From assembly GCA_016208085.1 (NCBI GenBank), contig JACQYT010000080.1:56514-120513 (forward strand): a stretch of DNA of 64,000 nt. The letters run 5' to 3'. The translations under genes were made by a program, and so were the position numbers. A model generated the notes under the pieces. That model was not told where the DNA came from. It worked only from the letters and a program-made list of their open reading frames with translations, and searched no databases. This document shows, in pieces, positions 9,448 to 63,445 of the stretch (the stretch's first letter is position 1; every line of letters starts with the position of its first letter). The stretch is from Elusimicrobiota bacterium (GTDB lineage: Bacteria; Elusimicrobiota; Elusimicrobia; Elusimicrobiales; UBA9959).

Positions 9448-9453
9448 GGAACC

Positions 9454-10203
9454 ATGAAAAAAATACTGGCTGAAATAGACAGGCTTCAGAAAGAGATAAA
9501 TAAACACCGGCCCATAAACAAAACCGTCCTTAAGCAGATCAGGGAGTATTACAAGGTGGGTCTTACCTACGCCTCCAATGCCATTGAGGGCAACTCGCTT
9601 ACCGAGAGCGAAACCAAAATAGTCCTGGAAGACGGCCTTACCATAAACGGCAAGCCGCTCAAGGATCATTTTGAAGCCCTTGGCCACGGCGAGGCCTACG
9701 ACCTGATGCATAACCTTTACAAGAATCAGGCTATGGCCGAGGCGGACATTAAAAAGCTGCACAAGCTGTTCTATTACAGGATAGACGCCAAAAACGCCGG
9801 CAAATACCGCAAGGTCAAGGTTTTCATAAGCGGCTCAAAGTACCCCCTGCCGCTGCCGGAAAATGTCCCCGGTCTTATGGCTGATTTTGTGCGCAAGCTT
9901 TTCGCCATGAAGAAACTACTTCACCCCGTTGAGCTCGCCGCGCGGGTGCACAAGGATTTTGTGTTTATCCACCCCTTTGTGGACGGTAACGGCAGGCTGG
10001 CCCGGCTTTTAATGAACCTGGCGCTGTTGCAGGTCGGCTATAACATAACAATAATCCCGCCGGTCCGCCGCGCGGATTACATAGACGCGCTTGAAAAGGC
10101 GCACGAAGACGACAAGCCATTTACCGCCTTTATAGCCGAGATGGCGCTGGAGACCCAGAAGGACTATATACGCCTGTTTGAGGAAAACAAAAAGATCAAA
10201 TAG
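9454..10203 (+). CDS. Fic/DOC family protein (AMPylase-type)
   Basis: Canonical Fic motif HPFVDGNGRLARLL. Confidence 0.9.
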   Translation: MKKILAEIDRLQKEINKHRPINKTVLKQIREYYKVGLTYASNAIEGNSLTESETKIVLEDGLTINGKPLKDHFEALGHGEAYDLMHNLYKNQAMAEADIKKLHKLFYYRIDAKNAGKYRKVKVFISGSKYPLPLPENVPGLMADFVRKLFAMKKLLHPVELAARVHKDFVFIHPFVDGNGRLARLLMNLALLQVGYNITIIPPVRRADYIDALEKAHEDDKPFTAFIAEMALETQKDYIRLFEENKKIK

Positions 10204-10206
10204 CAT

Positions 10207-13200
10207 ATGACCACACCTAAATTCAACGAAGACACGCTTTCTGAAAAGCCGGCTATTGAGCAGCTTAAGCGGATGAAGTATGAATTCTTGACCGGCGACA
10301 AGCTGGATCCGCAGGAAGCCGAGGAATGCGAGCGGACTTCGCGGCGTGATGTGATATTGGCGGATCGCCTGCGGGCCAAGCTTAAAGAATTGAATCCCAA
10401 TGCCGGCGAAATAGCCATTGAAAAAGCCATAAGGCAGGCAACCAATATACAGGGCACAAGCCTTATGGACGAGAACAAATTATTACATAAGGCGCTTGTT
10501 TCAAATATCTCCATAGAGCAGGAAGGTCCCGCCGGGCGCAGAAGCGTAACCATAAAATTTATAGACTTCGACGAGCCCAAAAACAACGACTTCCTTGCGG
10601 TCAACCAGTTCCGGGTCAAAGGCCCCAAGGTCGCGGACAGGCCGGACATAGTAATTTTCGTGAACGGCATCCCTCTGGCCGTTATTGAGTGCAAAAGCCC
10701 GGTTGCCCGTGAAACCGGCGTGGGCGACGCCATAGCACAGCTCCTGCGCTATCAAAAGGAAATTCCCGCGTTATTCAGGACCAACCAGATAGTTTTGGGG
10801 ACGAATCTGTTCGGCGCGAAATACGGCGTTATCGGCGCCGATTATGGCGCTTTCCATGAATGGAAAAACAAGCCGGAAGAAAAACTTCCGGATTTGACCG
10901 ACCATCCCGGCGTCAGGGAAATGCGGGACCTGGGCCTGCTGGAGGACGGGGAATTGCCTCGCGCGCCTGCGCAGCAGGACGTTACCATAGCGGCGCTTTT
11001 TAATAAGCGCAATTTTCTGGACATAATACGCAACTTTACCGTGTTCCAGGCGGACCAGGGCAAGGTCAGCAAAAAAATATGCCGCTACCAGCAGTTCGCG
11101 GCGGTGCAGCGTCTGAGCGCGCGCGTCCTGGCTGAAAAGGAAAAGAAAGGCATTATCTGGCACTGGCAGGGCTCCGGCAAGTCCCTGACCATGGTCTTCG
11201 CCGCCTTGAAACTCCGGCGGGAGGAGAGACGGCTGAAAAACCCGTATTTCCTGGTCGTAACCGACAGAAAAGACCTGGACAGGCAGATAACCAACACCTT
11301 TAACGACTGCGGTTTCCCCAATCCCATCAGGGCCGCGACCGGCCCGGAGCTTTACCGGATGCTGTCGGAGGGCGTGGGCCGCACCATTATGACCACGGTG
11401 CAGAAATTCCGCACGCCGCCGGACAAGCCGCTTTCCCCTGCCGACAATATTATTGTGCTTACCGACGAGGCCCACCGCACGCAGTACGGCAGTTTCGCCT
11501 TCAATCTGCGCAAAGCCCTGCCGAACGCCGCTTTCTTCGCTTTCACCGGCACGCCGCTGGACAAAAAAGATCGCAGCACCTATAAAGAATTCAGCCCCGC
11601 CGGCGAAAGCTACATGCACCGCTACGGCATAATGGAATCCGAGGCCGACAAAGCCACCGTGCCGATAAAATACATGGGCCGCCTGCCTTCGCTGCGCCTG
11701 GTCGGCGGGTCAATAGACGCGCTGCTGGCCTGCCTGTTCCCGGACAAGAGCAAAAGCGAACTGGCCGGGATCAAGAAGCAATACGCCGGCATGGAGGTCC
11801 TGCACGGCGCGCCTCAGAGAATAGAGCGCGTGGCCATGGATATAGTGGAGCATTACCATCAGGCCATACGCCCCAACGGCCTCAAAGCCATGATAGTGGC
11901 CAAAGACAGGGACGCCGCCGAGCTTTACAAAAACTGCCTGGACAAGCTTGTCCCGCCGGAGGCTTCGGCCGTTATCATGACGATAAACGAGCGCGGGGAT
12001 TGTGAAGAGCGCAAAAAGCGCTTCTCGCTTACCGACAAGGAAGAGGAAAACCTGAAAGAGCGCTTTAAGAATCCCGGCGACCCGCTTTCCTTCTTGATCG
12101 TCTGCGACAAACTGCTGACCGGCTTTGACGCGCCGCTTCTGCAGGCCATGTACCTGGACCAGCGGCTTATCGAGCACGGTTTGCTGCAGGCGGTCGCCCG
12201 CACCAACCGCTGCTATCCGGGCAAGAATTACGGGCTTGTGGTGGATTATGTCGGAATCGGAAGCGAATTGGCCGCTTCGCTCAAAAAATTCAATTCCGAG
12301 GATGTGGCCGGCATGTTCAGCGCCGAGGACGTGGAAAAAGAATTGAAGCAGTTGCCGCTTCTTCATAAGGCCGCGATGGTATTTTTCGCCGGCGTTTCTT
12401 TTGATGCCCAGCCCAGGACTATAATCCAGAAATGCCTTGAGGTTCTAAGGCCGCCCGCCGTAAGAGGCGGGTTTGATGAGGCCTACCGCGCCCTGGCAAA
12501 AAGCATGGATTTTCTGATGCCCGACCTGCGGATTGAGCCTTTCCTCAAGGATTTTAAGTTCCTGGGAGCCGTCCGCGAGGGCGCCAAAAACCTGTACCGC
12601 GATGAGCGTCTTAAGTCCGAGGATTTGAGCGCCAAGGTAAAGGCCCTGATACAAGCGCATATCGCCGCCGAAAAAATAGAAGAGCTTTTAAAGCCCCTGA
12701 CGATTACCGCGCCTGACTTTGCCGGGCAGCTTGCGGCCAAGGGTTCGGATAAAGCCAAGGCGGTGCACCTGGAATACGCTTTGCGCGACACGCTGCGCAG
12801 CGCGTCTGCGGAAAACCCGGCATTTTATGAAACCCTCCAAAAACGGCTGGAAGACGCGATTGCCGCGAATAAAAAAGAACGCCGCGACGACGCGGACCTG
12901 CTGTTGTCGCTTATGCGGATAAAGGAAATAGAGGCGCATAAAGACGAGACGGCGAAAAAACTAGGCCTGGCCGGCGGCAGGGAGTTCGCCTTCTTCGGCC
13001 TTATTGACCGGTCCGAAGACCTGCCGGGCTTGAAAAAGGAAGAGCGGGCCGTTCTCGCCAAAGAAATTATCGGCCTGATAGAAGAGCGGGCCGTAGCCGA
13101 GTGGGCCGAGCGGGAAGATATTCAAAAGGAAATGCGTCGTGAAATAAAACGCCTGCTCAGGCGCAAAGGCTGCGCCGAGGAAAAGCTCCCGGCCCTGACC

Positions 13201-13242
13201 AGGGAGTTGATTGAGCTGGCCCAGCAATGGGTAAAGCGTTAA
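10207..13242 (+). CDS. hsdR: Type I restriction enzyme R subunit HsdR (nuclease + SF2 translocase)
   Basis: PD-(D/E)xK region PDIVIFVNGIPLAVIECK, helicase motif I WQGSGKSLTM, and DEAH box LTDEAHRTQYG. 1011 aa. Confidence 0.95.
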   Translation: MTTPKFNEDTLSEKPAIEQLKRMKYEFLTGDKLDPQEAEECERTSRRDVILADRLRAKLKELNPNAGEIAIEKAIRQATNIQGTSLMDENKLLHKALVSNISIEQEGPAGRRSVTIKFIDFDEPKNNDFLAVNQFRVKGPKVADRPDIVIFVNGIPLAVIECKSPVARETGVGDAIAQLLRYQKEIPALFRTNQIVLGTNLFGAKYGVIGADYGAFHEWKNKPEEKLPDLTDHPGVREMRDLGLLEDGELPRAPAQQDVTIAALFNKRNFLDIIRNFTVFQADQGKVSKKICRYQQFAAVQRLSARVLAEKEKKGIIWHWQGSGKSLTMVFAALKLRREERRLKNPYFLVVTDRKDLDRQITNTFNDCGFPNPIRAATGPELYRMLSEGVGRTIMTTVQKFRTPPDKPLSPADNIIVLTDEAHRTQYGSFAFNLRKALPNAAFFAFTGTPLDKKDRSTYKEFSPAGESYMHRYGIMESEADKATVPIKYMGRLPSLRLVGGSIDALLACLFPDKSKSELAGIKKQYAGMEVLHGAPQRIERVAMDIVEHYHQAIRPNGLKAMIVAKDRDAAELYKNCLDKLVPPEASAVIMTINERGDCEERKKRFSLTDKEEENLKERFKNPGDPLSFLIVCDKLLTGFDAPLLQAMYLDQRLIEHGLLQAVARTNRCYPGKNYGLVVDYVGIGSELAASLKKFNSEDVAGMFSAEDVEKELKQLPLLHKAAMVFFAGVSFDAQPRTIIQKCLEVLRPPAVRGGFDEAYRALAKSMDFLMPDLRIEPFLKDFKFLGAVREGAKNLYRDERLKSEDLSAKVKALIQAHIAAEKIEELLKPLTITAPDFAGQLAAKGSDKAKAVHLEYALRDTLRSASAENPAFYETLQKRLEDAIAANKKERRDDADLLLSLMRIKEIEAHKDETAKKLGLAGGREFAFFGLIDRSEDLPGLKKEERAVLAKEIIGLIEERAVAEWAEREDIQKEMRREIKRLLRRKGCAEEKLPALTRELIELAQQWVKR

Positions 13243-15270: not shown

Positions 15271-15429
15271 GTAAAAAAACGATTTTTATTATTCTATCAA
15301 AATGGCGGCTTCTTCCTCAATTTAAACTGAAAAAATGTGGGCGAATTTTTTCATGCTCTTCCAGCCGGCGACACCAAAAACACACCGGCGTTTGCCGGCA
15401 CAATCGACCAGCCGGATGTTTTTCAAAAA

Positions 15430-15468
15430 CGAACGACGACCTGAAAATTGCACTGCGCAATTTTCAGG
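15430..15468. repeat. Conserved hairpin element CGAACGA-GACCYGAAAATTGC-loop-GCAATTTTCRGG (copy 1 of 3); acts as an inter-tRNA hairpin
   Basis: 12-bp stem 15440..15451 / 15457..15468. Related copies lie at 27096..27178 and 47715..47752, each with the same CGAACGA head. Confidence 0.75.
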
Positions 15469-27067: not shown

Positions 27068-27106
27068 GGCGTCATTGGGAAGATTTTGTCGAAAAGCGAA
27101 CGAACA

Positions 27107-27178
27107 CCCGAAAATTTCAGAGGATATTTTTATTCCTCAAGTTGTCAATACAAATCGATATTAATTGAAATTTTCGGG
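27107..27178. terminator. Long hairpin between convergent genes (13-bp arms CCCGAAAATTTCA / TGAAATTTTCGGG)
   Basis: Arms at 27107..27119 and 27166..27178 enclose an inner GAGGA..TCCTC hairpin and are preceded by the GCGAACGAACA head of the repeat family. The element abuts the aroA stop. Confidence 0.5.
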
Positions 27179-28420
27179 TTAATGGAATATTTTTTTAAAG
27201 TCTTTGAAGAATGCCGGGTAGGATTTTTTTACGCAGCCGGGGTTCTTTATTTTAACGGGTTTCGCCGCAAGTATCGCCCCCACGGCGGCCGTCATCGCTA
27301 TGCGGTGGTCGTTGAACGTGTCAACGGCCCTGCCGCCGGCTATCGTCTGCGGGCCCTTGATCACAAGGCTGTCTTTGCCTGCTCCGGCCTTCAGGCCCAG
27401 GGACATGAAAAGCGCCAGGGTGGCCCGTATCCTGTCCGATTCTTTGAGTTTCAGTTCTCCGATCCCGTTTATGACGGTCGTGCCGCTGGCGCGGGCGGCT
27501 AAAAGCGCCAGCAGCGGCAACTCATCCACCATGGCCGGCACTTCGCCCGGCCGTATCCGGATGCCTTTGAGCCGTGAACTCAAAACCGTAAGGTCACCGG
27601 CCGGTTCAGGCGCATAATGCGTCTTTCTGACGGATATTTTCGCGCCCATTGCTTTAAGTATTTTTACCAGGCCGGTCCTGCCGGGGTTCAGTCCGACATT
27701 TTTTATCGTGAGCCTGAAGCCTTCCAGCAGGCAGGCCGCGGCCATAAAAGGCGCGGCCGAAGAGAGGTCTCCCGGCACGCGTATCTCTTTCGCCTTGAGC
27801 CGCCCCGGCTTTAAATAGATAGTCAGGCCGGCCGCCGAGATACGGGCGCCGAGATGTTTAAGCAGGCGCTCCGTATGGTCGCGGGTCCGGAAGCGCCCGG
27901 TTATGGAGGTGGCGCCTTGCGCGTAAAGAGCGGCCAGCAGTATCGCCGATTTTATCTGCGCGCTGGGGACCGTGAGCCTATGAGCCGCGCCTTTTAAAGC
28001 GGAGCCTGAGATATATATCGGCGCTCTGCCGCCGGAAAGGCGGATTTTGGCGCCCATAAGTTCAAGCGGCGCCGCTACCCTGGACATGGGTCTTTTTAAA
28101 AGGGAGTCTTCGCCGGTTATAGCCGAATCAAAATCCTGGCCGGCCAGCAGGCCGCTCAGCAGGCGCAGGGTAGTGCCGGACGCGCCGGCATTAAGAGTCC
28201 CTGTCGGTTTTTTCAGGCCGCCAAGCCCCAAGCCTTTTACCAGCAGGCGGTTTTTTGAAGCGGAAATCCCGACCCCGAGTTTTTTCAGGCAGGCGGCGGT
28301 GGCCAGCGTGTCTTCGCAGAGCGAGGGGTTGTCTACGCGCGTGTTCCCGTCCGCTATGGCGGCGAGTAGCAGCGCCCTGTGGGTTATGGCCTTGTCCGGC
28401 GGCGGAATATAAGGTTTCAT
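27179..28420 (-). CDS. aroA: 3-phosphoshikimate 1-carboxyvinyltransferase (EPSP synthase)
   Basis: MKPYIPPPDKAITHRALLLAAIADGNTRV, LNAGASGTTLRLL, and the C-terminal DHRIAMTAAV. The start is trimmed by 40 codons because the track extension is a read-through of the repeat 28421..28540. Confidence 0.9.
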   Translation of the reverse strand: MKPYIPPPDKAITHRALLLAAIADGNTRVDNPSLCEDTLATAACLKKLGVGISASKNRLLVKGLGLGGLKKPTGTLNAGASGTTLRLLSGLLAGQDFDSAITGEDSLLKRPMSRVAAPLELMGAKIRLSGGRAPIYISGSALKGAAHRLTVPSAQIKSAILLAALYAQGATSITGRFRTRDHTERLLKHLGARISAAGLTIYLKPGRLKAKEIRVPGDLSSAAPFMAAACLLEGFRLTIKNVGLNPGRTGLVKILKAMGAKISVRKTHYAPEPAGDLTVLSSRLKGIRIRPGEVPAMVDELPLLALLAARASGTTVINGIGELKLKESDRIRATLALFMSLGLKAGAGKDSLVIKGPQTIAGGRAVDTFNDHRIAMTAAVGAILAAKPVKIKNPGCVKKSYPAFFKDFKKIFH

Positions 28421-28601
28421 AAGTTGACAAGTTGATAAGTAGGGGAAGTTGATAAAGCGGGGGACAGTTGACAAGGCTGGGGAAGTTGATAAGTAAGGGA
28501 GTGATTTACTCTGTTCACTTATCAACTTGTTGTTTCCCACTTGTCAACTTATCAACCGCCGGTTTCACTTGCCAACTGTTGTTCCCCACTTTGTCAACTA
28601 G
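28421..28601. repeat. ~180-bp imperfect palindrome built from 5 + 5 inverted copies of AGTTGAYAA / TTRTCAACT
   Basis: The left arm has 5 copies of AGTTGA(C/T)AA separated by G-rich spacers. The right arm has 5 copies of the complement. The centre lies near 28505. Confidence 0.85.
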
Positions 28602-31448
28602 TCAATTGGAGCGAAGCAAAAACCTTGCACTAGATTTATAAAACGACTTACATATTATTAAAATAAGTCCAAGCAAAGTTATAAGTAAGATCAAACTTGG
28701 TTCTGTCATTCGTTGAGTGTCTTCTCCTAAGTCTAACGATTGGTTGCTTAAAAGCAATTTGTCCTGTTTTTGTTTCAGAATCGCTTTTTGTGCTTCGTTT
28801 TCAACTACAATATATGAAGTTATAGGTGTCATTATTTTTGAGATAAAACTATGCTTGACTAAATTAAGCCATTCTTTGCCGGATGTTTCAGGATGGAAGG
28901 TTTGTGAAATCCATTTGCCTTGCATTATCAAACCTGTCTGCCAACTTTTTTCAATTATTTCCGAATTATTAACTTCAAATAATGTCTCCTTTAAAACAAT
29001 ACTCGGTTTATTGTGATTTGGTAAATAAGCTATTGGTTTTTGTTTGTTGGGATATGCCAATACCTTATGATTAAAATTTAACTCTAATGTGCCGGTAAGC
29101 GGTATTTTAGGATTTGACAATAAAGAATGAGATTCCAAACCCCATTTTTGGTTAATCACGTAGAACAAATTATTTTCAGGATAAGCTATTTTAAAATCGG
29201 AAAAGTCTTTTTCAATTATTGCATTTTCAATACTATCAGTTACTACCACAATAACAGGATAAGCATTGTTCCTGTCTTTATATGAATTAAATAAAACCGT
29301 CCTAATTGCTCTATCCAAAAAAAACCCGCCATCAAAAATCTGTTGGTCAAATTTCTGTCTCCAATTATTGTCTAAAGGAAGGCTGCGGGTATATGTGTTT
29401 GCAAAACTTATTTTGGCATTCTCCTTGCCAATTAGATTTTTACTTAACAGCGATTTAATTCTTTGAGCAAAATCTTCCTTAAAATTTTCTTTTCCAGATG
29501 AAATGTCAACTATAAAGTGATAATACGGCTTTCTCTGAATTTTTTTCAACGTTGTCTTTTCTTTTGCTGAAACATATACAATATTTTCATTTGAACTGGT
29601 AGTAGTTCTTATTTCTGAGTGCTCTTTGTAATTTCCTAATCTTAATGTGGTTCCATCAATAGTAATTTTAACCGGCTCTTGATGGATAAATTCTATTCCT
29701 GTTTTTCGAGTTTCACCTTTAGAAAACGGAAAAACTCTGAAAACCACTTTATTGCCTGACAGATAATGTAAAATACCAGGGTCCCTATTTTCATTTCTGA
29801 TTTGTGAGAATACCCATATTGCAGATTTTTTCTCCGCTAATATACCCATTTCCTTTTTATTTCCAACATATAAGTAATAATCGCTAATCCAACATCCGAT
29901 GGGCAGTTCAATTGTTGTGGCATATTCTGAAAGCTGGGTGGTTTCACTATGATTTGTAATTTCTAAATCCATCCAACTTGTCCAAGCATTTTGTTTTTCG
30001 TCAAAAGTGCTGCTTGAATTTATCTTTGAGATTTTGACTTGAGTATTGCCGATGTTTTCAGCCCGCAATTTAAATGAGGTTTTGCCGTAAAAAACATTTT
30101 CAATAGTGTTAATCTTTGAATCAGACAGGGTAAGGTTGTCTAAAACCAGCCAATTAAAATAAGAAGACAGATAAGGGATTTGTTTTTCAAAAAGCAAATT
30201 TAAATTTCTGTCTTTGTGATATTTGACTACATCTAGTGTTTTTGAAAGAGAGATTTTGTCAATGTTATAGGTTTTAGAATAGTCCGGTTTATACAAGTAC
30301 TCAAGCGTTTCGTTTAATGCGCGTCTGTCCATTAAATAAGTGGCTGTGATAAATAGTGGTAATACAAAAAAACCTGCTACTGAAAGGAATACCGCTAATT
30401 TTTTAGATAGATAGGTTTGTGGGAATTTATAGTCATTTAAAAGTTCGTTTAAATGGATAATAAAAAGCGCCAACGGCGTAAGCATTAAGAAGCCTGTCCC
30501 GACAGCAGCAATTGCAATGATTGAAAATGGCAAAAAGGGCAGGAAAACCAAGAAAAAATAAAAGGTAAAAGCAAACGTTAAACTCCTTCCTGCAAAAAGA
30601 AATAGTCTATACAATTTATTCTGCGAATTCGGCAGGCAAATAAGCAATCCATTTATTACTGCAAGAATGTAAAACCAGATATTGCTAAAATCACCGAAAG
30701 TGCCTGAATTTTCAACTCCAAATTTATTAAAAAAATATTCCTTGTTATTTAATGCTAAACCTAAAAGTGGAAATATAAGAGCAATGGGGATTTTCCAAGC
30801 CAACTGATATTTAACCCACATAGCGGCTTTTTTAAGACCCAGGATGTAAATCCCCCTAATTAAAAAGAATAAGAAGATAAGTGTCGCGATAATTGCCAGA
30901 ATAACCATCGCGTGCATGCTAAAATTTGAATCAACAGGTTTCCACAAGGGGAATATTAGTTGGGTAAATAAATACCAGGAAATAGGAATAATTAGCGCTA
31001 TTAAAAAATTCTTCCAAACCTTTTGTTCTTTATTCTCAGGCGTTAGAAGTGCAACAAGTGTAAAGAGAGAATATGCAAGTGTCGGCATTAAGAAGGTTCC
31101 GACATACAAGATCATATTTGTTGGAACCATCCATTGCGGGATATCAAAAGGGATTATTACATCAAAATAATTTCCATAGAGATATAAGAATGATATGTAA
31201 CTTAACAATGCTGTAATGGAATAGAATGCCGAAACTTCTTTCTTCTTAATTACAAGGTCAACAGCATAAATAAAATTGAGCGTGCCCAATATCGCTAATG
31301 TGCCGCCAAATTTTTTCCAAAGACCTATGCTCTCAGCCGATAAAAGACTTTTGATAATATTGTATTCTCCCAAAAAGATAGCGAACAGTATTCCGATTGG
31401 AATAGCATTGATTATAAACAACCATTTTGGATTAAGTGAGTTTCGCAT
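28602..31448 (-). CDS. MSEP-CTERM-type exosortase substrate: polytopic membrane N-terminus plus a VIT-like/extracytoplasmic domain plus a C-terminal sorting signal
   Basis: 948 aa. There are ~12 predicted TM helices in the first ~370 aa. The C-terminus is MTEPSLILLITLLGLILIICKSFYKSSARFLLRSN (M-T/S-E-P, a TM helix, then a basic tail). Strongly AT-rich. Confidence 0.7.
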   Translation of the reverse strand: MRNSLNPKWLFIINAIPIGILFAIFLGEYNIIKSLLSAESIGLWKKFGGTLAILGTLNFIYAVDLVIKKKEVSAFYSITALLSYISFLYLYGNYFDVIIPFDIPQWMVPTNMILYVGTFLMPTLAYSLFTLVALLTPENKEQKVWKNFLIALIIPISWYLFTQLIFPLWKPVDSNFSMHAMVILAIIATLIFLFFLIRGIYILGLKKAAMWVKYQLAWKIPIALIFPLLGLALNNKEYFFNKFGVENSGTFGDFSNIWFYILAVINGLLICLPNSQNKLYRLFLFAGRSLTFAFTFYFFLVFLPFLPFSIIAIAAVGTGFLMLTPLALFIIHLNELLNDYKFPQTYLSKKLAVFLSVAGFFVLPLFITATYLMDRRALNETLEYLYKPDYSKTYNIDKISLSKTLDVVKYHKDRNLNLLFEKQIPYLSSYFNWLVLDNLTLSDSKINTIENVFYGKTSFKLRAENIGNTQVKISKINSSSTFDEKQNAWTSWMDLEITNHSETTQLSEYATTIELPIGCWISDYYLYVGNKKEMGILAEKKSAIWVFSQIRNENRDPGILHYLSGNKVVFRVFPFSKGETRKTGIEFIHQEPVKITIDGTTLRLGNYKEHSEIRTTTSSNENIVYVSAKEKTTLKKIQRKPYYHFIVDISSGKENFKEDFAQRIKSLLSKNLIGKENAKISFANTYTRSLPLDNNWRQKFDQQIFDGGFFLDRAIRTVLFNSYKDRNNAYPVIVVVTDSIENAIIEKDFSDFKIAYPENNLFYVINQKWGLESHSLLSNPKIPLTGTLELNFNHKVLAYPNKQKPIAYLPNHNKPSIVLKETLFEVNNSEIIEKSWQTGLIMQGKWISQTFHPETSGKEWLNLVKHSFISKIMTPITSYIVVENEAQKAILKQKQDKLLLSNQSLDLGEDTQRMTEPSLILLITLLGLILIICKSFYKSSARFLLRSN

Positions 31449-31977
31449 TATGTCGTGTTAATTCAGTAAGTGTAAAATTAACCCCTAAATAAAAGATTAT
31501 CAGAAAAAAAAGGTAGATAAAAGTCCCTTCGGCTTGGTGTAACCAGGAAATGTGTCCGTCTGCCAGTTTCGCTCCTGATCTGTGTATAAAAACAGAAAAT
31601 AAAATTCTGGAAGTATTTGCAAAAATTGTAAAAATGTATGCGGCAAGCAGCGTAATTGGTAAAGCGGCTATTTTTCTGTTTCTGTCTTGTAAGAATTTAA
31701 TAACCGCGAATGCAAGCATTATAAAACACAATATCCAAAAGTTGAAACCTGAACAAGATTTGTCAATTACAACGTTCAGTTTATCGTGAAAATATCCACC
31801 GTCATTGACACAAATCGAGTTTGAGTTTGTAATTATTTCAATGATTTTGTCGGTTGGTTTAAGTAGAAAATAAAGGTCGGTATTGTCGGCAAGCGTATAA
31901 GCGAATTTTAAAAGTATAAAAACCGCTATCACTGTAAAATAGTATGGTGTATTTCTGTTCGCAGTCATTTTTGTCAA
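31432..31977 (-). CDS. Small exosortase-family transpeptidase (XrtK-like)
   Basis: The exosortase catalytic triad motifs are visible: IDKSCSGFNFW (Cys), FANTSRILF (Arg) and WLHQAEGTFIY (His). 181 aa and polytopic. It overlaps the substrate gene by 17 nt. Confidence 0.75.
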   Translation of the reverse strand: MTKMTANRNTPYYFTVIAVFILLKFAYTLADNTDLYFLLKPTDKIIEIITNSNSICVNDGGYFHDKLNVVIDKSCSGFNFWILCFIMLAFAVIKFLQDRNRKIAALPITLLAAYIFTIFANTSRILFSVFIHRSGAKLADGHISWLHQAEGTFIYLFFLIIFYLGVNFTLTELTRHNAKLT

Positions 31978-32409
31978 CTAGAACTTTCTGTTAAGGCAAA
32001 AATCAATAGCTTTGATGTATGAAATGGGTCCCAGGCCGCGTATCTGTCCGGCGCAGGCGGCTTTTGTCACCGAGAGCCGGCGGAACGGTTCCCTTTTCTT
32101 TATGTCGGAAAGATGCACCTCAACGGCCGGGAGCCCGGAGGCTTTTATGGCGTCCCTTATGGCGTAGCTGTAATGGGTGTACGCGGCGGGGTTTATTATA
32201 AGAGAGTCCGCCCAGTTTAAATTCCGCGCTATCAGGTCTATTATGCGGCCTTCGCAATTTGACTGGAATATCCTTGTTTTTACGCGTTTTGAGGCGGCAT
32301 ATTTTCTGATAAGGGCGTTCAGCTCTTTAAGCGTGAGCCTGCCGTATATTTCGGGCTCCCTTAAGCCCAGGAAATTAAGATTGGGGCCGTGGATTATAAG
32401 TATGTTCAT
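31978..32409 (-). CDS. aroQ: Type II 3-dehydroquinate dehydratase
   Basis: MNILIIHGPNLNFLGLREPEIYG is the type II DHQase N-terminus, and INPAAYTHYSYAIRDA is also present. The start is trimmed to Met7 because the track extension MRQKFL is a translated palindromic repeat. Confidence 0.9.
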   Translation of the reverse strand: MNILIIHGPNLNFLGLREPEIYGRLTLKELNALIRKYAASKRVKTRIFQSNCEGRIIDLIARNLNWADSLIINPAAYTHYSYAIRDAIKASGLPAVEVHLSDIKKREPFRRLSVTKAACAGQIRGLGPISYIKAIDFCLNRKF

Positions 32410-38545: not shown

Positions 38546-39415
38546 ATGGACAGCGTCTATCGCATTCAGGGCCGGGACTTGCGGGAACAGGATATTGCCC
38601 AAATCAAATGTTTTCTAAACGACAATCCTGATTGGAGCCGCAATCGCCTTTCCATAGAATTAGCACAGGTTTGGAACTGGCGAACCCCAACTGGGCAGCT
38701 AAAGGATATGGCTGCTCGGAGCTTATTGCTCAAGCTGGAGCGATGTAATTTGATTGTCCTGCCGCCGCGTCGTCATAAAGCTTCCAAGCGCCTTCCCCAT
38801 GCGCCCGAGCTTGTCTTCCCAGAGTACGAAGCCTCTGTCACAGCCAAGCTCAGAGATCTGACTCCACTCTCCTTTGAGATAGTAGCCCCCAATCACACTA
38901 TATTCTCTCGACACCTTAAGCAACATCATTATCTCGGTTATCATGGGCCGGTCGGAGAAAGCATGGCCTACCTTGTTGGTGACCGATATGGACGCGACTT
39001 GGCATGCGTCCTTTTCGGCGCCGCGGCTTGGAAAGTAGCCGATCGTGACAATTACATTGGCTGGACTCCCGATGTACGGACATGTGGCCTCCATTGGCTG
39101 GCCAATAACACCCGCTTCTTGATTTTACCCTGGGTCAGAGTGGACCATCTGGCCAGTCACATCTTAGGCCGCATAGCCCGGCGCATAAGCGCAGACTGGG
39201 AACTCAAGTATGGCCACGGCATCTATTTGATTGAAACCTTTGTGGAGCGCGATCGTTTTAAAGGAACCTGCTACCGCGCAGCCAACTGGACATGCGTTGG
39301 ACAAACTCAGGGACGCAGCCGGCAGGATCGTAATCGGAAGCTGCATGTTCCCGTCAAAAACATTTACCTCTATCCCCTGCGTCGGGATTATAAGGAAGTC
39401 CTCTGCCATGGATAG
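38546..39415 (+). CDS. DUF4338 domain protein (DruA-like domain; commonly transposon-associated)
   Basis: Recognised from the overall pattern QIKCFLNDNPDWSRNRLSIELAQVWNWRTPTGQLKDMAARSLLLKLE...HHYLGY...FLILPWV...ETFVERDRFKGTCYRAANW. Its GC content is lower than that of the flanks. Confidence 0.6.
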   Translation: MDSVYRIQGRDLREQDIAQIKCFLNDNPDWSRNRLSIELAQVWNWRTPTGQLKDMAARSLLLKLERCNLIVLPPRRHKASKRLPHAPELVFPEYEASVTAKLRDLTPLSFEIVAPNHTIFSRHLKQHHYLGYHGPVGESMAYLVGDRYGRDLACVLFGAAAWKVADRDNYIGWTPDVRTCGLHWLANNTRFLILPWVRVDHLASHILGRIARRISADWELKYGHGIYLIETFVERDRFKGTCYRAANWTCVGQTQGRSRQDRNRKLHVPVKNIYLYPLRRDYKEVLCHG

Positions 39416-43047: not shown

Positions 43048-43287
43048 ATGAACAAGGAGCTGAAAAAAGCGGTAAAAGAGCGCATCCTGATCTTTGACGG
43101 GGCGCTGGGCACCTATCTGGGAAAGTTCGGACTTGTCCACGGAGATTTTAAAGGCCACGAGGGATTGAACGAATATCTTTCCGTTTCAAGGCCCGAGGTC
43201 ATAAAACAAACACATTCCGATTACCTCGCCGCGGGCGCCGACGTCGTGGAAACCAACACCCAATATCTCCTCGGTGAAACTGGCTAA
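43048..43287 (+). pseudogene. metH: metH 5' fragment (first ~70 codons of the homocysteine-binding domain), separated from the rest by a frameshift and small deletion
   Basis: ILIFDGALGTYL...HSDYLAAGADVVETNT is a MetH/BHMT N-terminus. The frame then runs QYLLGETG* instead of the expected FGAN... Confidence 0.7.
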
Positions 43288-46200
43288 AGAGGCCGTCGCG
43301 CGCTGTCGGACCGCGGGCAAGCCCAGGTTCGTGGCAGGCGCGGTGGGCCCCACCAACAAGGCGCTGTTCGTGACCGGCGGAACCGATTTTGACGAATTCA
43401 CAGAAGTCTATTTTGAGCAGATAACGGCCCTGCTGGAAGGGGGGGCGGACCTGCTTTTAATAGAGACCGCGCACGATATCCTGAACATCAAGGCCGCGCT
43501 GGCCGCCGCCTCAAAAGCTTTTGCGGCTGCCTGCCGCAAATTGCCGGTGATAGTTTCGGTAACCATGGACAGGAAAAATACCATGCTGAGCGGCCAGGAC
43601 CCCCGGGCCGTCCATGTGGCCCTGGAGCATTTCCCGCTTTTCGCGCTGGGTTTCAACTGTTCCACCGGCCCCGAAGACATGGCCTTGCGGCTTGAAGAAC
43701 TGTCCGGGATGTCCGGCTTCCCCGTTTTGGCCATGCCCAACGCCGGGCTGCCTGATGAGAACGGCAGGTATAATGAAACCCCGGAGAAATTCGCCCGGAC
43801 CATTAAAAATTATGCCCTTGGCGGGTTTATCAATATCGCCGGCGGCTGCTGCGGCACCACCCCCGCTCATATAAAAGCGCTGGCCGAAGCGCTGAAGGGC
43901 GTTGCGCCCCGGCGTCATAAGAGCGGCCAGGCCTGGGCGGTTTCCGGCATAGAGCCGCTGTTCTATTCGGAGATTGACCCGCCGCTCCTGGCCGGCGAGC
44001 GCAACAATTCCATAGGGTCAAAAAAATTCCGCGACGTCGTGGCCGCCGGCGGGTGGGACCAGGCCGTGGAAATGGCGAAAGCGCAGGTGCGCGCCGGCGC
44101 GCATATCCTGGACGTCTGCCTCTCAAACCCCGACAGGAACGAGCCGGCGGACGTCAAAATATTCCTGCCGATGCTCTTCCGCGCCGTAAGGGCGCCGGTG
44201 ATGATAGATACCACGGATATCAAAGTGATGGAAGAGGTTTTGAAGCTGGCGCCGGGCAAGTGCGTATTAAATTCGGTCAATTTTGAGTTCGGTCCCCAAA
44301 AGCCCGCGAAGGCCGCAGAGCTTGTGAAACTCTACGGCGCGAAACTCGTCGTTGGGCTTATAGACGAGGCTAAAGAACAAGGCCTGCCGCTGACCGCCGG
44401 ACGCAAGCTCGCTATAGCGCGCAGGGCGTATGACTTTTTCACCAACAAGTGCGCGCTCCGTCCCGAAGACATAATATTCGACGCCCTGGTGTTCCCGGTC
44501 GGGGTCGGCGGGGAATACGCCCGGAGCGCCGGCGAAACGCTTAAAGCCGTGGAACTGATAAAAAAAGAATTCCCGCTTACAAAAACGGCGCTGGGAGTGA
44601 GCAACGTGTCTTTCGGCCTGCCGCCCGAAAGCAGGGAGATCTTGAACGCCGTTTTCCTGCATCACGCCATAAAGGCCGGGCTGGACATCGCCATCGTCAA
44701 TGTCGAGAAACATAAACGATATTCCCTGATACCCGCGCGCGAGCTGGAACTGGCCGAAAACCTGATATTCGCCCGCGCGCAGGACGGAGCAGCGGTATTT
44801 GCCGGCTATTTCAGGGAGAAAAAGAAGCGCGCGCCCGCTCAAGGCGCCGCCGCGCCGCCAGGCTTCGGCTTCATCCCTCATCCTTCATCCCTCATACCTC
44901 ACTTTGGAGCTCAGGCCGCGCCTTCTTCCCCCCAAGAAAAGCTTTACCGGCTGATAATGGACGGTTCAAAAGCGGAGGTGCAGGACACCGTGCGCGAACT
45001 GCTGGCCGCCCGGAGCCCGCTTGAGATAATAAACGGCCCGGTGCTTAAAGCCATGGCCGAAGTGGGAAAATTATTCGCCGAAGGCGAGCTGATAATAACC
45101 GAAGTCCTGCAGAGCGCCGAAGCGACTGCATCCGCCGTGTCCGTTTTAGGGCCGGCGCTGAAGGCGGGGAATGTCCCCAGGCGGGGAAAACTCCTGCTTG
45201 CCACCGTGAAGGGAGATGTGCACGATATAGGGAAGAATCTTGTCCATATTATTTTTGAATCCAACGGCTTTGAGGTGATAGACCTGGGCGTTAAAGCCGC
45301 CCCCGAGACCATAACGGCTTCGGCCCTGGCCGAAAAACCGGATTTTATAGGGCTTTCCGGCCTGCTGGTCCGCTCCACGGAGCAGATGGCGATAACGGCC
45401 AGGGAACTGGCCAAAGCCGGCGTTTCGGCGCCGTTGCTGGCCGGCGGGGCCGCGCTGACCGAAAAGTTCGTCGCCGCCGGTATGGCGCCGCTGTATAAGG
45501 GGCCGGTGTTTTATGCGCCGGACGCGATGGACGGCCTTAACACCGCGCTGAAACTTATCATGGATAAGGGTATAGGGGATAGGGTAGAGGGTATAGGGTG
45601 CGGATGGCAGGGGAAGGGACCGGAGATACAAGACGAAAAAATCAAGTTGAAAAGGGCGCGGGCCAACGCCGGTTTCCGGCCCGAGGAACTGCCCGAGCCC
45701 AAAGACCTCGCGCGGCACTTTTTCGGGGAATACCCCCTGCCGGAGTTGTTCGCCTGGCTGGACGAGGACCTTTTCAACCTGCGGTTTCTGAAGCTTAAAA
45801 AGACCGACGGGAAGAAGGCCGGCGGCGCAAAAAAGCTTCTGGCGGGTATAAAGGACGAAATAATAAAGGGTGGGATAATAAAACCACGCGGCGTGTACCG
45901 GTTCTTCCCGGCGGCCGCGGACGGAGACAGCCTGCTGTTCTACGGTCCGGACGGCAGGGCCATGGAGACGATAAATTTTCCGAGGCAGCACGACGGCGAG
46001 CGGCTCTGCATAGCCGATTTCATCGCGCTTCACGGCGGGCAAAAGGACCACGTGGCCCTGCTGGCCGTATCCTGCGGCGAAGGGATCTCAGAATTTTCCC
46101 GCGGCGAAAGGGAGAAAGGCAACTATTTAAAATCATATATCGTCGAGGCGCTGGCCTTGAGCCTGACGGAAGCCTTCGCCGAGGTCCTGCATCACAGAAT

Positions 46201-46450
46201 ACGCGCCGACTGGGGCTTTGCCGAACCAAAAACAGGCGGGCCGTTGCACCGCTCGCATTACCGCGGCAGAAGATATTCGTTCGGCTGGCCGCCCTGCCCG
46301 GACCTCTCCGGCCAGAGGAAGCTTTTCAATATGCTGAAGCCCGAAGGCGATGTGGGAATAAAACTGACGGAGCATTACATGATGGAGCCGGAGGCATCCG
46401 TTTCCGCTTTCGCGCTGCATAATCCGAAAGCGAAGTATTTTAATATATAG
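43274..46450 (+). CDS. metH: Cobalamin-dependent methionine synthase MetH (remainder: Hcy domain C-part, pterin-binding, B12 cap + B12-binding, AdoMet-activation domains)
   Basis: GGCCGTTPAHI (Zn site), a pterin-binding barrel, GDVHDIGKNL (DxHxxG), GLSGLL (SxL), and the activation domain RYSFGWPPCPDL. It is in a different frame from 43048..43287. Confidence 0.9.
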   Translation: MKLAKEAVARCRTAGKPRFVAGAVGPTNKALFVTGGTDFDEFTEVYFEQITALLEGGADLLLIETAHDILNIKAALAAASKAFAAACRKLPVIVSVTMDRKNTMLSGQDPRAVHVALEHFPLFALGFNCSTGPEDMALRLEELSGMSGFPVLAMPNAGLPDENGRYNETPEKFARTIKNYALGGFINIAGGCCGTTPAHIKALAEALKGVAPRRHKSGQAWAVSGIEPLFYSEIDPPLLAGERNNSIGSKKFRDVVAAGGWDQAVEMAKAQVRAGAHILDVCLSNPDRNEPADVKIFLPMLFRAVRAPVMIDTTDIKVMEEVLKLAPGKCVLNSVNFEFGPQKPAKAAELVKLYGAKLVVGLIDEAKEQGLPLTAGRKLAIARRAYDFFTNKCALRPEDIIFDALVFPVGVGGEYARSAGETLKAVELIKKEFPLTKTALGVSNVSFGLPPESREILNAVFLHHAIKAGLDIAIVNVEKHKRYSLIPARELELAENLIFARAQDGAAVFAGYFREKKKRAPAQGAAAPPGFGFIPHPSSLIPHFGAQAAPSSPQEKLYRLIMDGSKAEVQDTVRELLAARSPLEIINGPVLKAMAEVGKLFAEGELIITEVLQSAEATASAVSVLGPALKAGNVPRRGKLLLATVKGDVHDIGKNLVHIIFESNGFEVIDLGVKAAPETITASALAEKPDFIGLSGLLVRSTEQMAITARELAKAGVSAPLLAGGAALTEKFVAAGMAPLYKGPVFYAPDAMDGLNTALKLIMDKGIGDRVEGIGCGWQGKGPEIQDEKIKLKRARANAGFRPEELPEPKDLARHFFGEYPLPELFAWLDEDLFNLRFLKLKKTDGKKAGGAKKLLAGIKDEIIKGGIIKPRGVYRFFPAAADGDSLLFYGPDGRAMETINFPRQHDGERLCIADFIALHGGQKDHVALLAVSCGEGISEFSRGEREKGNYLKSYIVEALALSLTEAFAEVLHHRIRADWGFAEPKTGGPLHRSHYRGRRYSFGWPPCPDLSGQRKLFNMLKPEGDVGIKLTEHYMMEPEASVSAFALHNPKAKYFNI

Positions 46451-47665: not shown

Positions 47666-47721
47666 CCCGTAAAATTTAGCCGGTAAAACCTATTGGCCCC
47701 AGGTTGATAGACAAGCGAACG

Positions 47722-58896: not shown

Positions 58897-58908
58897 GGGC
58901 GCCGCGCC

Positions 58909-59050
58909 CGCCATAAGCCGTATGCTTTAGGCCATAGGCAGAAAGGCTGCCATAAGCTTTAAGCCGTAAGCCATAAGCTTTATTAAGAAAGGTTCTTTAC
59001 GGCTTAAGATATCGGTTTCTGCGTATGGCATATGGCATATTGCCTACGGC
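58909..59050. repeat. Imperfect palindrome built from GCCATAAGC / TTAAGCCGTAAG words
   Basis: The left arm GGCCATAGGCAGAAAGGC...TTTAAGCCGTAAGCC pairs with the right arm TTTACGGCTTAAG...GGTTTCTGCGTATGGC. It is preceded by the GC-rich hairpin GGCGCGGCG-TAAGGG-CGCCGCGCC, which spans the M3 stop codon (58885..58908). Confidence 0.7.
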
Positions 59051-59071
59051 AAAAAAGACGAAGTCTTTTTT
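59051..59071. terminator. A/T-flanked hairpin AAAAAAGAC-GAA-GTCTTTTTT
   Basis: 9-bp stem with symmetric A and T runs, 3 nt before the next start codon. Confidence 0.4.
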
Positions 59072-59074
59072 ATT

Positions 59075-60121: not shown

Positions 60122-60125
60122 GGAA

Positions 60126-60202
60126 GTAAATAGGTAGATACTGTTGATAAGGTGATACAGAAAAACTCCGTATTAACGTATTCACGTATAAACGTATCAA
60201 CG
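60126..60202. repeat. Word-repeat hairpin region including 4 tandem 8-mers CGTATNAA
   Basis: CGTATTAA CGTATTCA CGTATAAA CGTATCAA lie at 60169..60200. Upstream, GTAGATACTGTTGATAAGGTGATACAG carries the complementary GTTGATA / TGATAC words. Confidence 0.7.
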
Positions 60203-60210
60203 CTTTAATA

Positions 60211-61368: not shown

Positions 61369-61369
61369 G

Positions 61370-61415
61370 CTGTAGAAGTCAGAAGTAAGATGTCAGAGGT
61401 CAGAAATAGGAAGTT
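61370..61415. repeat. GTAG-headed word repeat upstream of asnB (CTGTAGAAGTCAGAAGTAAGATGTCAGAGGTCAG...)
   Basis: 32 nt (61372..61403) match the reverse complement of 63409..63440 at 28 of 32 positions by hand count. Confidence 0.85.
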
Positions 61416-63323
61416 ATGTGCGGAATCTGCGGAATATATAACTACAAAACGGACGAACCGGTCGAGCGCGAAGAACTTGAAAAAATGAACAGTCTTCTCG
61501 TCCACCGCGGGCCGGACGACGCGGGCTTTTACCAGCAGGACGGGATAGGCCTGGCCATGCGGCGCCTGTCCATAATAGACCTTTCAAGCGGGCATCAGCC
61601 GATCCCGAACGAGGACGGTTCCGTCTGGATTGTCTTTAACGGCGAGATATACAATTTTCAAACCCTGCGCGAAGAATTGCTGGCCACGGGCCACCGGTTC
61701 AAAACAAAGTCCGACACTGAAACCATAGTGCATCTTTACGAGGAAAAAGGGCTTGCCTTTGTCACATATCTGCGGGGTATGTTCGCCATAGCGCTCTGGG
61801 ACTCCCGAAGAAAGCGCCTGGCGCTCGCCCGCGACCAGGTCGGCAAGAAACCGCTTTACTACGCCGTGAACGGCTCTTCAATAGCTTTCGCTTCCGAATT
61901 GCGCCCGCTTACGACCGTCAAATGGTTCATGCGCGACCTGGACCCGGCAGCCGTGGACGCCTATCTCACTTTGCAGTATATACCGAGCCCGCTCAGCATA
62001 TTTAAGAACGTCAGGAAGCTCGAGCCCGCCTCCATGCTGGTGGTTTCGGACGGCGCGGTCAAGAGCGAGAAATACTGGGACCTGCCGCTTGCGGCCGAGA
62101 AGCTGGACTATATGCCGCTCGCTGAGATAAAGGAGCGGCTTTACAGCGAGCTTTTTGAGGCCACAAAGATAAGGCTGATCTCTGAAGTGCCGCTCGGGGC
62201 GTTCCTGTCCGGCGGGATAGATTCCTCCATCGTGACGGCGCTTATGGCAAAGAGTTCGCCGGACCCGGTCAAAACCTTCTCAATAGGCTTCAAGGAGGCG
62301 GAGTTCTCGGAGCTCGGCTACGCCAGGCAGGTCGCGCGGATGTACGGCACAAAGCACACCGAGTTCATAGTGGAAGCCAATATGGCGGACGTCTTTGAGA
62401 AGCTGGTCGCGCATTACGGCGAACCTTACGCCGACGCCAGCGCTCTGCCTTCTTATTTTGTCTCAAGAGAGACGCGCAAAGCCGTCACTGTGGCTTTAAA
62501 CGGCGACGGCGGCGACGAGAATTTCGGCGGCTACCTGCGCTATATGGCCATAAAAATAGATTCCGTCTGGGGACGCACGCCGGCGGCCCTGAAAAGAGCG
62601 CTGCTGAACTTCACGTACTTGTTCCCGAAGAAGGCCCCTTACAACGTGTTCTGGCGCGCGGAAAAGTTCATGAAAGCGTCGCTGCTCGAAAGCCTGCCCC
62701 TGCGCTATCTCTCGACGGTCGCGTTTTTCGGCCCGAACGACAAGGCAGGGCTGTTCAGCAGGGAATTCATCAACGCGCGCTGCGGCAGCGCCGATTACGC
62801 GGAAAAATATATAGCCGGTCTGTTCGAAATACCGGCGGGGCAGGACCTGCTTAATAAGCTCATATACGTCGACTTCCGTTCCTATCTGCCGGAATGCCTG
62901 ATGACAAAAATGGACATAGCCTCTATGGCGAATTCGCTGGAAACCAGATCGCCTTTCCTGGACCAGAAGGTGATAGAGTTCGCTTTCAGGCTGCCTGGCA
63001 GCCTGAAACTTAGGGGCTTGAGGGGAACCAAGTGGATACTTAAGGAAACTTTTAAGGATATGCTTCCGGCGCGGATTTACAAAAGGGGCAAGATGGGCTT
63101 CGGCATACCGCTGGGCCCGTGGTTCAAGGGAGAGCTGAAAGACCGCTGGGCCGGGACCTGCCTGTCCGAGAAGGCGCTCTCGCGCGGCTATTTCAACAGG
63201 GAGCACCTGTTCAGGATCTGGGACGAACATCAGAACGGCTCGCGCGACCACGGCTATCACCTGTGGGCGCTGCTGATGCTTGAACTATGGCATAATCAAT
63301 TCGCCGACGATTTTAAGCTGTAG
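61416..63323 (+). CDS. asnB: Asparagine synthase (glutamine-hydrolysing)
   Basis: N-terminal nucleophile MCGICGI and the PP-loop FLSGGIDSS. 635 aa. Confidence 0.9.
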   Translation: MCGICGIYNYKTDEPVEREELEKMNSLLVHRGPDDAGFYQQDGIGLAMRRLSIIDLSSGHQPIPNEDGSVWIVFNGEIYNFQTLREELLATGHRFKTKSDTETIVHLYEEKGLAFVTYLRGMFAIALWDSRRKRLALARDQVGKKPLYYAVNGSSIAFASELRPLTTVKWFMRDLDPAAVDAYLTLQYIPSPLSIFKNVRKLEPASMLVVSDGAVKSEKYWDLPLAAEKLDYMPLAEIKERLYSELFEATKIRLISEVPLGAFLSGGIDSSIVTALMAKSSPDPVKTFSIGFKEAEFSELGYARQVARMYGTKHTEFIVEANMADVFEKLVAHYGEPYADASALPSYFVSRETRKAVTVALNGDGGDENFGGYLRYMAIKIDSVWGRTPAALKRALLNFTYLFPKKAPYNVFWRAEKFMKASLLESLPLRYLSTVAFFGPNDKAGLFSREFINARCGSADYAEKYIAGLFEIPAGQDLLNKLIYVDFRSYLPECLMTKMDIASMANSLETRSPFLDQKVIEFAFRLPGSLKLRGLRGTKWILKETFKDMLPARIYKRGKMGFGIPLGPWFKGELKDRWAGTCLSEKALSRGYFNREHLFRIWDEHQNGSRDHGYHLWALLMLELWHNQFADDFKL

Positions 63324-63440
63324 AAGTAAGAAATCAGAAGTAAGAAAAGCAAAACTTAAAACCGATAAAGCAAACTATTGGATTTATAAAGTGCGGTTTC
63401 CACAGAATCTTACCTCTGACATCTTACCTCTTACTTCTAT
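63318..63440. repeat. REPIN-like pair downstream of asnB: a direct unit CTGTAGAAGTAAGAAATCAGAAGTAAGAAAAG and an inverted unit CTTACCTCTGACATCTTACCTCTTACTTCTAT
   Basis: The units lie at 63318..63349 and 63409..63440, separated by ~60 nt. The first unit contains the asnB stop codon (TAG of CTGTAG). Confidence 0.8.
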
Positions 63441-63445
63441 TCCCT

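Follow-up and report, generated by a model that had tools for sequence, protein, structure and literature searches.

Word-built hairpins with stop-codon-rich repeats at operon junctions in a group of uncultured Elusimicrobia

Based on the sequence, folding and comparative evidence presented here, we describe a class of word-built hairpins seen in this group of Elusimicrobia, in which short, stop-codon-rich words are arrayed at operon junctions, the words usually varying from locus to locus and between lineages. For the 180-base palindrome in front of aroA, our preferred though tentative reading is that it may be an operon-internal structured mRNA spacer, grown in place, which couples aroA translation by RNA unfolding. 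The preliminary description of this DNA had proposed that such intergenic elements form a class specific to the lineage and may diversify in place, and this proposal is strengthened by the occurrence of the same design, with other words, at co-directional junctions of related Elusimicrobia contigs. What that description had missed is the operon-internal, ancestrally overlapping nature of the junctions, the stop-carrying non-triplet periods of the words, and the insertion of a cassette into the first word of the aroA palindrome.

The palindrome upstream of aroA

The source organism is an uncultured member of the Elusimicrobia, and the closest relatives of its aroA come from Elusimicrobia/Elusimicrobiaceae MAGs (84, 80 and 67% identity). 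The window, i.e. the whole 64-kb stretch of DNA analysed, carries the palindrome within the following setting, given in the order of transcription:

36963-35977, minus strand: DAHP synthase (aromatic amino acid operon)
35144-34062, minus strand: chorismate synthase (aromatic amino acid operon)
34101-33517, minus strand: shikimate kinase (aromatic amino acid operon)
33557-32409, minus strand: aroB (aromatic amino acid operon)
32427-31978, minus strand: aroQ, stop TAG at 31978-31980 (aromatic amino acid operon)
31970..31981, minus strand: left copy of the 12-nt direct repeat CTAGTTGACAAA, overlapping the aroQ stop codon
28602..31969, minus strand: inserted cassette, 3.4 kb, 32-34% GC, with an exosortase-like fragment and a 948-aa ORF
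28602..28604, minus strand: stop codon TGA of the cassette ORF; pairing of the hairpin starts here, at its 5' foot (ORF list; stop-anchored fold)
28590..28601, minus strand: right copy of the 12-nt direct repeat CTAGTTGACAAA; the two copies bracket the cassette
28510..28601, minus strand: 5' arm of the aroA-sense transcript, five TTGAYAAG-type words with G-rich spacers
28495..28517, minus strand: hairpin apex, small terminal stem-loop GAGTGATTTACTC (MFE and centroid structures)
28421..28500, minus strand: 3' arm of the transcript, CTTRTCAACT words with C-rich spacers and no stop trinucleotides
27179..28420, minus strand: aroA (EPSP synthase; Pfam PF00275, E=1.8e-97), true ATG at 28418-28420

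The letters at 28421-28601 are those of the 180-base imperfect palindrome originally described. Ten copies of a 9-10-nt word are placed about 18-22 bp apart, five in each orientation. The original count of five plus five AGTTGAYAA words holds for the plus strand, where all five are exact (28422, 28430, 28447, 28466 and 28484), but the inverted set consists of three exact words (28519, 28541 and 28591, minus strand) and two with one mismatch, TTATCAACC at 28548 and TTGCCAACT at 28570. Nine exact matches to AGTTGAYAA are present in the 64-kb window against 0.50 expected, a number reached in 0 of 100 shuffles; the ninth lies on the minus strand at the aroQ stop codon (31971-31979), and within the window the word is confined to the palindrome and this stop codon. 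At 28429-28493, a tandem repeat search (TRF) detects 3.6 copies of an 18-nt unit with an 8-10-nt word at its core, and a repeat search identifies 14 inverted pairs in several registers within the palindrome. Units of the 5' arm (28510..28601) are about 8-22 nt long and each contains TGA, TAA or TAG, the palindrome as a whole having 11 stop trinucleotides in its 5' half and 0 in its 3' half. A single GTAG is found inside the left arm, away from the unit starts.

As had been described, the palindrome lies between aroA and the inserted cassette; it abuts both the cassette ORF stop (TGA, 28604-28602) and the aroA ATG (28420-28418) and so fills the entire gap. A 453-aa ORF (27179-28540) opens at a GTG inside the palindrome, and the 40 additional residues, already suspected to be a false extension of aroA, are indeed false: the EPSP synthase Pfam match places the start at the ATG at 28420, as does a 413-aa database protein that is identical from end to end. 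The extension exists because the pyrimidine-rich arm is free of stops, and word hairpins with such an open arm mislead gene callers. The 20 nt upstream of aroA contain no AGGA, GGAG or GAGG core, and they lie within the predicted stem.

A long bulged hairpin, suggested in the preliminary description, is predicted from 28421-28601 on either strand with z of about -7. On the minus strand, which is the sense strand of aroA, the predicted RNA fold has an energy of -71 kcal/mol (z=-7.2 versus shuffles), and on the plus strand -84.8 kcal/mol (z=-6.8), i.e. the antisense folds better. Across fold computations z is about -7 to -9, and the structure spans from the stop codon to a last paired base 4 nt before the aroA AUG, the sequence after the stem being ACTTATG. 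The same junction is present on two independent Logan contigs, the palindrome itself being read on L001 only; the palindrome is not an assembly artefact.

The cassette, which separates aroQ from the palindrome, does not belong to the hairpin element. It is absent in the related contigs L003 and L004, and its 948-aa ORF has no Pfam match. Since it is bracketed by the 12-nt repeat, it would have been inserted into the first word of a pre-existing palindrome, and the left CTAGTTGACAAA copy appears to mark where the array of words began prior to this insertion. The bracketing copies themselves look like a target duplication, or like the result of an insertion between two array words. A type I restriction-modification cluster (HsdM, HsdS, HsdR) and a homologue of DruA (Druantia), at 3408-13242 and 38546-39415, are also present in the window; these are defence genes and unrelated to the palindrome.

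The preliminary description had also called for a comparison of orthologous junctions, which among the relatives reveals a hairpin of the same word in L003 and no spacer in distant ones. In L003 (AroA 84% identical; 79% identity to the window at 4-fold synonymous sites), the aroQ stop is directly followed by a hairpin of about 105 nt, with the same TTGATAAG words and the same ...CTTGTCAACTTATG ending at the aroA start. By eye, about the outer 45 nt on each side are common to the two spacers, and the window copy has some 90 extra nt in its middle. L004 (80% AroA identity) has 8 nt between aroQ and aroA, L105 (78%) an unrelated spacer of 79 nt, and relatives at 70-72% identity show an aroQ-aroA overlap of 14-20 nt. 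The hairpin spacer is absent in L004 and in L106-L109, the more distant relatives lacking it because their aroQ and aroA overlap. This distribution suggests that the palindrome dates from the last ancestor shared by the window organism and L003, in which it would have formed at a previously spacer-free junction, and its length seems to have changed since by whole units. Protein look-ups with SpoU returned only junctions with the spacer length of the window, and a look-up with AroQ, for which an over-long start was used, returned no match.

Two further observations concern related contigs. L104, whose aroA is 79% identical, ends 51 nt upstream of aroA, perhaps because a repeat or palindrome interrupted the assembly at this point. 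Operon spacers at L106 6560-6830 and L005 16369-16654 are occupied by tandem repeats whose units measure, by eye, roughly 50-95 nt; they include the aroE-aroC spacer of L106, where L108 has only 30 nt, and seem to be a third kind of junction filler in the lineage.

Sister elements in the window and in related contigs

The same design had been reported to recur at four other sites of the window. This is borne out for 58909-59050 and 63318-63440 and partly for 60126-60202, where the fold is weak, but not for 61370-61415, which has one arm. All four sister elements lie at co-directional junctions and are arrays of 7-8-nt words:

58897..59074, plus strand: M3 peptidase/LPG synthase junction element, GCCATAAGC words, then the inverse GCGTATGGCATATGGC
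60122..60210, plus strand: LPG synthase/glycosyltransferase junction element, 8-nt stop-first words, then CGTATTAA x4.2
61369..61415, plus strand: glycosyltransferase/asnB junction array, one-armed heptamer array, AGAAGTC x4.6
63321..63445, plus strand: asnB/SpoU methylase junction element, in which the asnB stop TAG is the first word

In the M3 peptidase/LPG synthase element, TRF finds GCCATAA x4.3 and TATGGCA x4.0 at 58909-59050 (fold z=-4.7); the element at 58897-59074 ends in an A6-stem-T6 hairpin just before the ATG, and the end of the M3 peptidase gene, AGCATAGGCGCGGCGTAAG, holds two word variants. At 60126-60202 the words are present and the fold is no better than that of shuffles (z=-0.9). 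The element at 63318-63440 (z=-4.0) has 7-nt arrays on both arms, the heptamers of the 5' arm facing TCTTACC x4.4 on the 3' arm, and its stem ends 7 nt before the ATG. No inverted partner was found for the 61370-61415 array, and the array at 61369-61415 has words in common with the asnB/SpoU element. Period-7/8 arrays of 3.7-4.7 copies (TRF) start at 58949, 59024, 60169, 61374, 63322 and 63408, and each word tested is confined to its own locus within the 64-kb window. Direct copies of the same words (GCTGTAGAAGT.AGAAGTAAGA) flank asnB on both sides (61369-61395 and 63317-63346), possibly through duplication or gene conversion between the junctions, and the one-armed array upstream of asnB could also pair with the 3' arm 2 kb downstream.

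Among the related contigs, the aroB|aroQ junction of L003 has CCGGTATCCGGTGG x4 followed by CCGGTTA x11, and three consecutive junctions of L005 have CGTAAG/AGTAAG words followed by CTTACG/TTTACG; word-built hairpin elements are also carried by L032, L034, L036, L038 and L040. At the orthologous asnB|spoU junction, the genes of relatives overlap or abut (ATGA or GTGA), or are separated by hairpins of unrelated words: GTAGAAGTAAGA in the window, GGTGACATAATAC in L032 (85% protein identity), GTAAAGA or TGGTAAGC elsewhere. In L036, asnB is flanked by a hairpin on either side, and L035, whose asnB DNA is 93% identical, has none or a short remnant. The M3|LPG element is homologous in the window, L036 and L038, where the GCCATAAGC and GCGTATGGCATATGGC words are kept (with a 19-nt identical stretch common to the window and L036) although 4-fold sites of the window are only 42-43% identical to those of L036/L038. 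Local alignment of this element scores 49 and 42 for L036 and L038, respectively, against shuffle maxima of 34 and 26; for covariation, the repetition of the words makes its alignment ambiguous, and few of the pairs vary at all. At this junction the genes of other relatives overlap (ATGA or GTGA). Taken at the level of sequence, these comparisons show fast turnover of word hairpins at some junctions and constraint at one (M3|LPG), and that the elements fill junctions that ancestrally overlapped. The words are of local origin, the first unit being the upstream gene end in some cases; in L040, for instance, the last 8 coding nt of the upstream gene, GGTACGCT, match the array unit GGTAAGCT.

The elements have several properties in common. 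The element makes up the whole spacer, with 0-5 nt separating the upstream stop codon from the beginning of the hairpin. Units are 7, 8, 20 or 22 nt long and each holds TAA, TAG or TGA; since these lengths are not multiples of three, stops occur in all three frames. In 18 curated spacers, a set partly picked by eye, the 5' halves contain 108 stop trinucleotides and the 3' halves 34; 16 of the 18 have a purine-rich 5' arm. Because either strand of a palindrome shows this polarity, the transcribed strand cannot be told from it, and the purine-to-pyrimidine polarity was dropped as a strand test on this logic; one-armed arrays alone are informative, and the five checked by eye (61374, L065 4423, L083 14758, L084 4340 and L086 1294) have their stop-containing words on the sense strand. 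Of 17 AT-type arrays with a period of 7-9 outside ORFs, 16 are flanked by co-directional genes, a gap type that makes up only 56% of those of at least 40 nt (binomial estimate of about 7e-4, the cases not being all independent). Long unbranched hairpins with z<-3 after gene stops number 26/639 in Elusimicrobia loci versus 5/360 in controls.

Four other detectors were discarded. Clustering by exact 7-mer inverted seeds chained everything through background seeds; an einverted-like dynamic programme missed the bulged aroA hairpin at strict scores and, when relaxed, found about half as many hits in shuffles as in real sequence; 6-mer/7-mer word counts were swamped by codon-biased high-GC coding sequence in the control loci and were unusable across genomes; and a sliding-window fold scan picked mainly G+C-rich hairpins of other kinds.

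The elements could also be a functionless by-product of a high rate of 7-9-nt slippage combined with palindrome formation by template switching, kept where harmless as long as they are compact hairpins, an explanation that we regard as somewhat less likely than the preferred one. It is favoured by the density of period-7 arrays (3 copies or more): the Elusimicrobia loci have 21 in 864 kb, about five times the density of the unrelated control loci (2 in 425 kb), and 7 of the 21 are in this window. Two of the latter lie inside metH (43274-46450), TCATCCC x4.4 at 44871-44901 and AGGGTAT x4.7 at 45567-45599, in inter-domain linkers. The rapid gain or loss between L035 and L036, the different words at the same junction in relatives 85% identical, and the first array unit that equals an upstream gene end (L040) point the same way. 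So does the absence of a sense-strand folding bias: between sense and antisense MFE (G.U asymmetry), sense is better in 12 of the 18 spacers and the means are equal. Against this explanation, the words of the M3|LPG element have persisted although synonymous divergence is saturated, the two arms remain complementary with as much as a 60-nt loop between them, and the elements are almost confined to co-directional junctions, whereas neutral junk should be commonest between convergent genes. We regard it as a serious rival that fits the M3|LPG conservation and the near absence from non-operon gaps poorly. The metH arrays, as such, lie in linkers on either side of the B12-binding domains, where the reading frame avoids their stop triplets, and the word-expansion process seems to reach protein linkers too.

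Candidate roles at the operon junction

In the coupling model, the palindrome would be transcribed in the aro operon mRNA and would fold as one long bulged stem-loop bridging the upstream stop to the aroA start. It may have originated in place, where aroQ and aroA formerly overlapped or abutted, short words beside the upstream stop having been expanded by slipped-strand duplication and a mirror-image arm having formed; growth and shrinkage by whole units would have followed, to about 105 nt in the relative and 180 nt here. With stop codons in all three frames of the 5' arm, no ribosome would read into the spacer. The stem would keep this long untranslated spacer double-stranded and place the upstream stop at the foot of a helix covering the aroA start region, and translation of aroA would then need a ribosome that reaches the upstream stop and opens the helix foot. 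The helix may also serve as an RNase barrier or processing site.

The predicted fold, in which the upstream stop codon pairs with bases ending 4 nt before the AUG, has the geometry of a coupling hairpin. In our view, translational coupling is the most likely role, with an RNase barrier or processing as a close second that does not exclude it. Several observations run counter to coupling. Folding energy shows no preference for the sense strand, and the aroA element folds better as antisense, which counts against RNA-specific selection; the heptamer arrays in the metH linkers indicate a mutational process that needs no function; and the fast turnover at some junctions (L036 versus L035) would also count against a coupling spacer. 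Several elements have a stem that stops 20-35 nt short of the start codon and leaves an SD-like motif free, and masking of the start site is therefore not universal. As for SD cores in general, they are present in 4 of 16 genes after hairpins versus 20 of 64 control short-gap junctions; they are rare in the lineage as a whole, and their absence after hairpins is thus nothing special.

The stem-loop might instead act on mRNA fate without translational coupling, as an RNase III site or a barrier to 3'-5' exonucleases, polycistronic segments being split or differentially stabilised as by REP sequences in E. coli operons. We consider this unlikely as the sole role. The variable distance to the next start codon and the SD-like motifs left free in some elements fit a function linked to the upstream cistron's 3' end, but the foot of the stem is AU-rich and bulged, and roughly half of the elements have a stem that abuts the downstream AUG, a feature for which this model has no need.

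A further variant, which we rate as improbable, is that a ribosome ending at the 5' foot could resume translation from the AUG of the 3' foot and leave the 100-180-nt spacer wound, a bacterial counterpart of shunting. The three-frame stop arrays and the start-free pyrimidine arm would then be design features of a bridge, and formerly overlapping NTGA pairs could gain long spacers and yet stay translationally coupled.

If the spacers do act on mRNA, as in the preferred coupling reading, a whole bacterial lineage would be remodelling its operon junctions in a novel fashion: long self-folding spacers of local words would, repeatedly and independently, be taking the place of overlapping stop/start pairs. 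The natural series at one junction (no spacer, a short hairpin, a long hairpin, hairpins of unrelated sequence) could then be used to study how coupling, or the stability of mRNA segments, is maintained once a spacer has been inserted. If they are functionless, they would mark an unusual mutational regime of slippage and palindrome formation in uncultured Elusimicrobia.

Known systems and other repeats of the window

The view, offered in the preliminary description, that no described family has this design stands: none was found in Rfam or in the literature searched. At gathering score, Rfam yields only two tRNAs in the whole window, and a permissive search of 28300-28750 gives two chance matches to miRNA precursors (20-21 bits versus cut-offs of 60-72); full-text searches on Elusimicrobia repeats or palindromes and on heptamer hairpins in operons yielded no description of this kind. 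Each of the systems considered below resembles the word hairpins in part, but by our comparison none appears to combine locus-specific words, a mirrored second arm and the replacement of overlapping junctions.

REP/BIME sequences and REPINs of proteobacteria are likewise imperfect palindromes in transcribed intergenic regions, often after stops in operons, and form stable stem-loops in mRNA. However, each such family is spread over the genome, has 20-40 nt of conserved sequence and is linked to RAYT, while each word hairpin has its own word per locus, no family consensus and arms that are tandem arrays. The suggested REPIN-like mobility, i.e. a mobile hairpin copied by a RAYT (IS200/IS605-type Y1 transposase) and diverging after insertion, would be in keeping with the imperfect palindrome, its intergenic position and the one internal GTAG, and other intergenic hairpins of the window begin with CTGTAGCGG. 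Nevertheless, we consider it very improbable. Within the 64-kb window AGTTGAYAA occurs only here and at the aroQ stop, and the other words only at their own loci; there is no consensus across elements, and orthologous junctions carry unrelated words. A GTAG-type head is absent from the unit starts and the sister elements have no head in common. Moreover, a Pfam scan of 37 ORFs of the window found no RAYT or other Y1 transposase, no integrase and no other transposase.

The second suggestion, that the words are protein-binding sites or an array of TTGACA promoters, has fared no better, and a DNA-level binding array (a DnaA-box-like cluster, iterons or multiple -35-like TTGACA sites) can hardly be maintained. 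The ten copies of a 9-10-nt word, five in each orientation at intervals of about 18-22 bp, would suit such an array, and the word (TTATCAACT versus TTATCCACA) matches the E. coli DnaA box at 7 of 9 positions. Yet the cumulative GC skew rises steadily through the site without a turn, and the sister elements use unrelated words, so that each locus would need its own binding protein. That L004 and L106-L109 lack the spacer shows that it is no essential origin; an oriC/DnaA-box cluster was rejected on the 7/9 match, the lack of a skew turn and the absence from close relatives. The scan for sigma-70-like promoters is empty inside the aroA element and not above chance in the sister elements. An intrinsic terminator was also rejected, there being no terminator-like site in 28300-28720 and none above chance in the sister elements.

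Integron attC sites are similarly imperfect palindromes of variable sequence and length at gene boundaries, and here a foreign cassette lies at the edge of the palindrome. They are defined by RYYYAAC...GTTRRRY cores and the IntI integrase, however, and attC was rejected: the arms of the palindrome read GTTGA... then ...TCAAC, which is the opposite order, the cores do not fit, and no integrase was found among the scanned ORFs.

Cyanobacterial STRR heptamers are tandem heptamer arrays comparable to long simple sequence repeats (SSRs). The latter, with units of 5-11 nt (Mrazek 2007, as summarised in PMC4679880), resemble the word elements in their tandem 7-9-nt units, lineage-specific abundance and mostly intergenic location, and are thought to stem from polymerase slippage; likewise, period-7 arrays are more frequent in the Elusimicrobia loci than in the control loci. 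SSRs and STRRs are direct arrays, often of a few heptamers genome-wide, whereas the word elements are degenerate, locus-specific and usually completed by an inverted array to form a hairpin. The TAACTGA heptamers of marine Beggiatoaceae, for which a role in translation has been proposed, are also stop-rich and placed just upstream of start codons, but consist of one conserved heptamer genome-wide, common to several phyla, in direct orientation only and with no predicted secondary structure (PMC4679880).

Closest to the proposed role is coupling by RNA unfolding, which, like coupling through NTGA overlaps, is established (f1 genes VII/IX, rpmI-rplT, MS2; reviewed in PMC12548453). There, too, a stem-loop over the downstream start is opened by the upstream ribosome, and the gene pairs considered here are otherwise of the overlapping NTGA type. 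The known coupling stem-loops are short and individual, whereas the word-built hairpins are recurrent, 100-180 nt long and cover the whole spacer, their coupling being a prediction.

The window also contains other repeats. The motif CTGTAGCGG occurs three times, and the intergenic hairpins at 48988-49037, 53309-53460, 56676-56690 and 56885-56895 begin or end with (C)TGTAGCGG or its complement; with their variable stems, they may form a GTAG-headed REP-like class and would be better REPIN candidates than the word hairpins. A 21-nt motif, GCGAACGAAGACCCGAAAATT, is present in three copies with 0-3 mismatches (15429-15449, 27096-27116 and 47715-47735) where none is expected. Each copy is followed by an inverted stem of the GAAAATT...AATTTTC type, one of them just downstream of aroA, and this set is a true multi-copy family, terminator-like or REP-like, distinct from the word hairpins.
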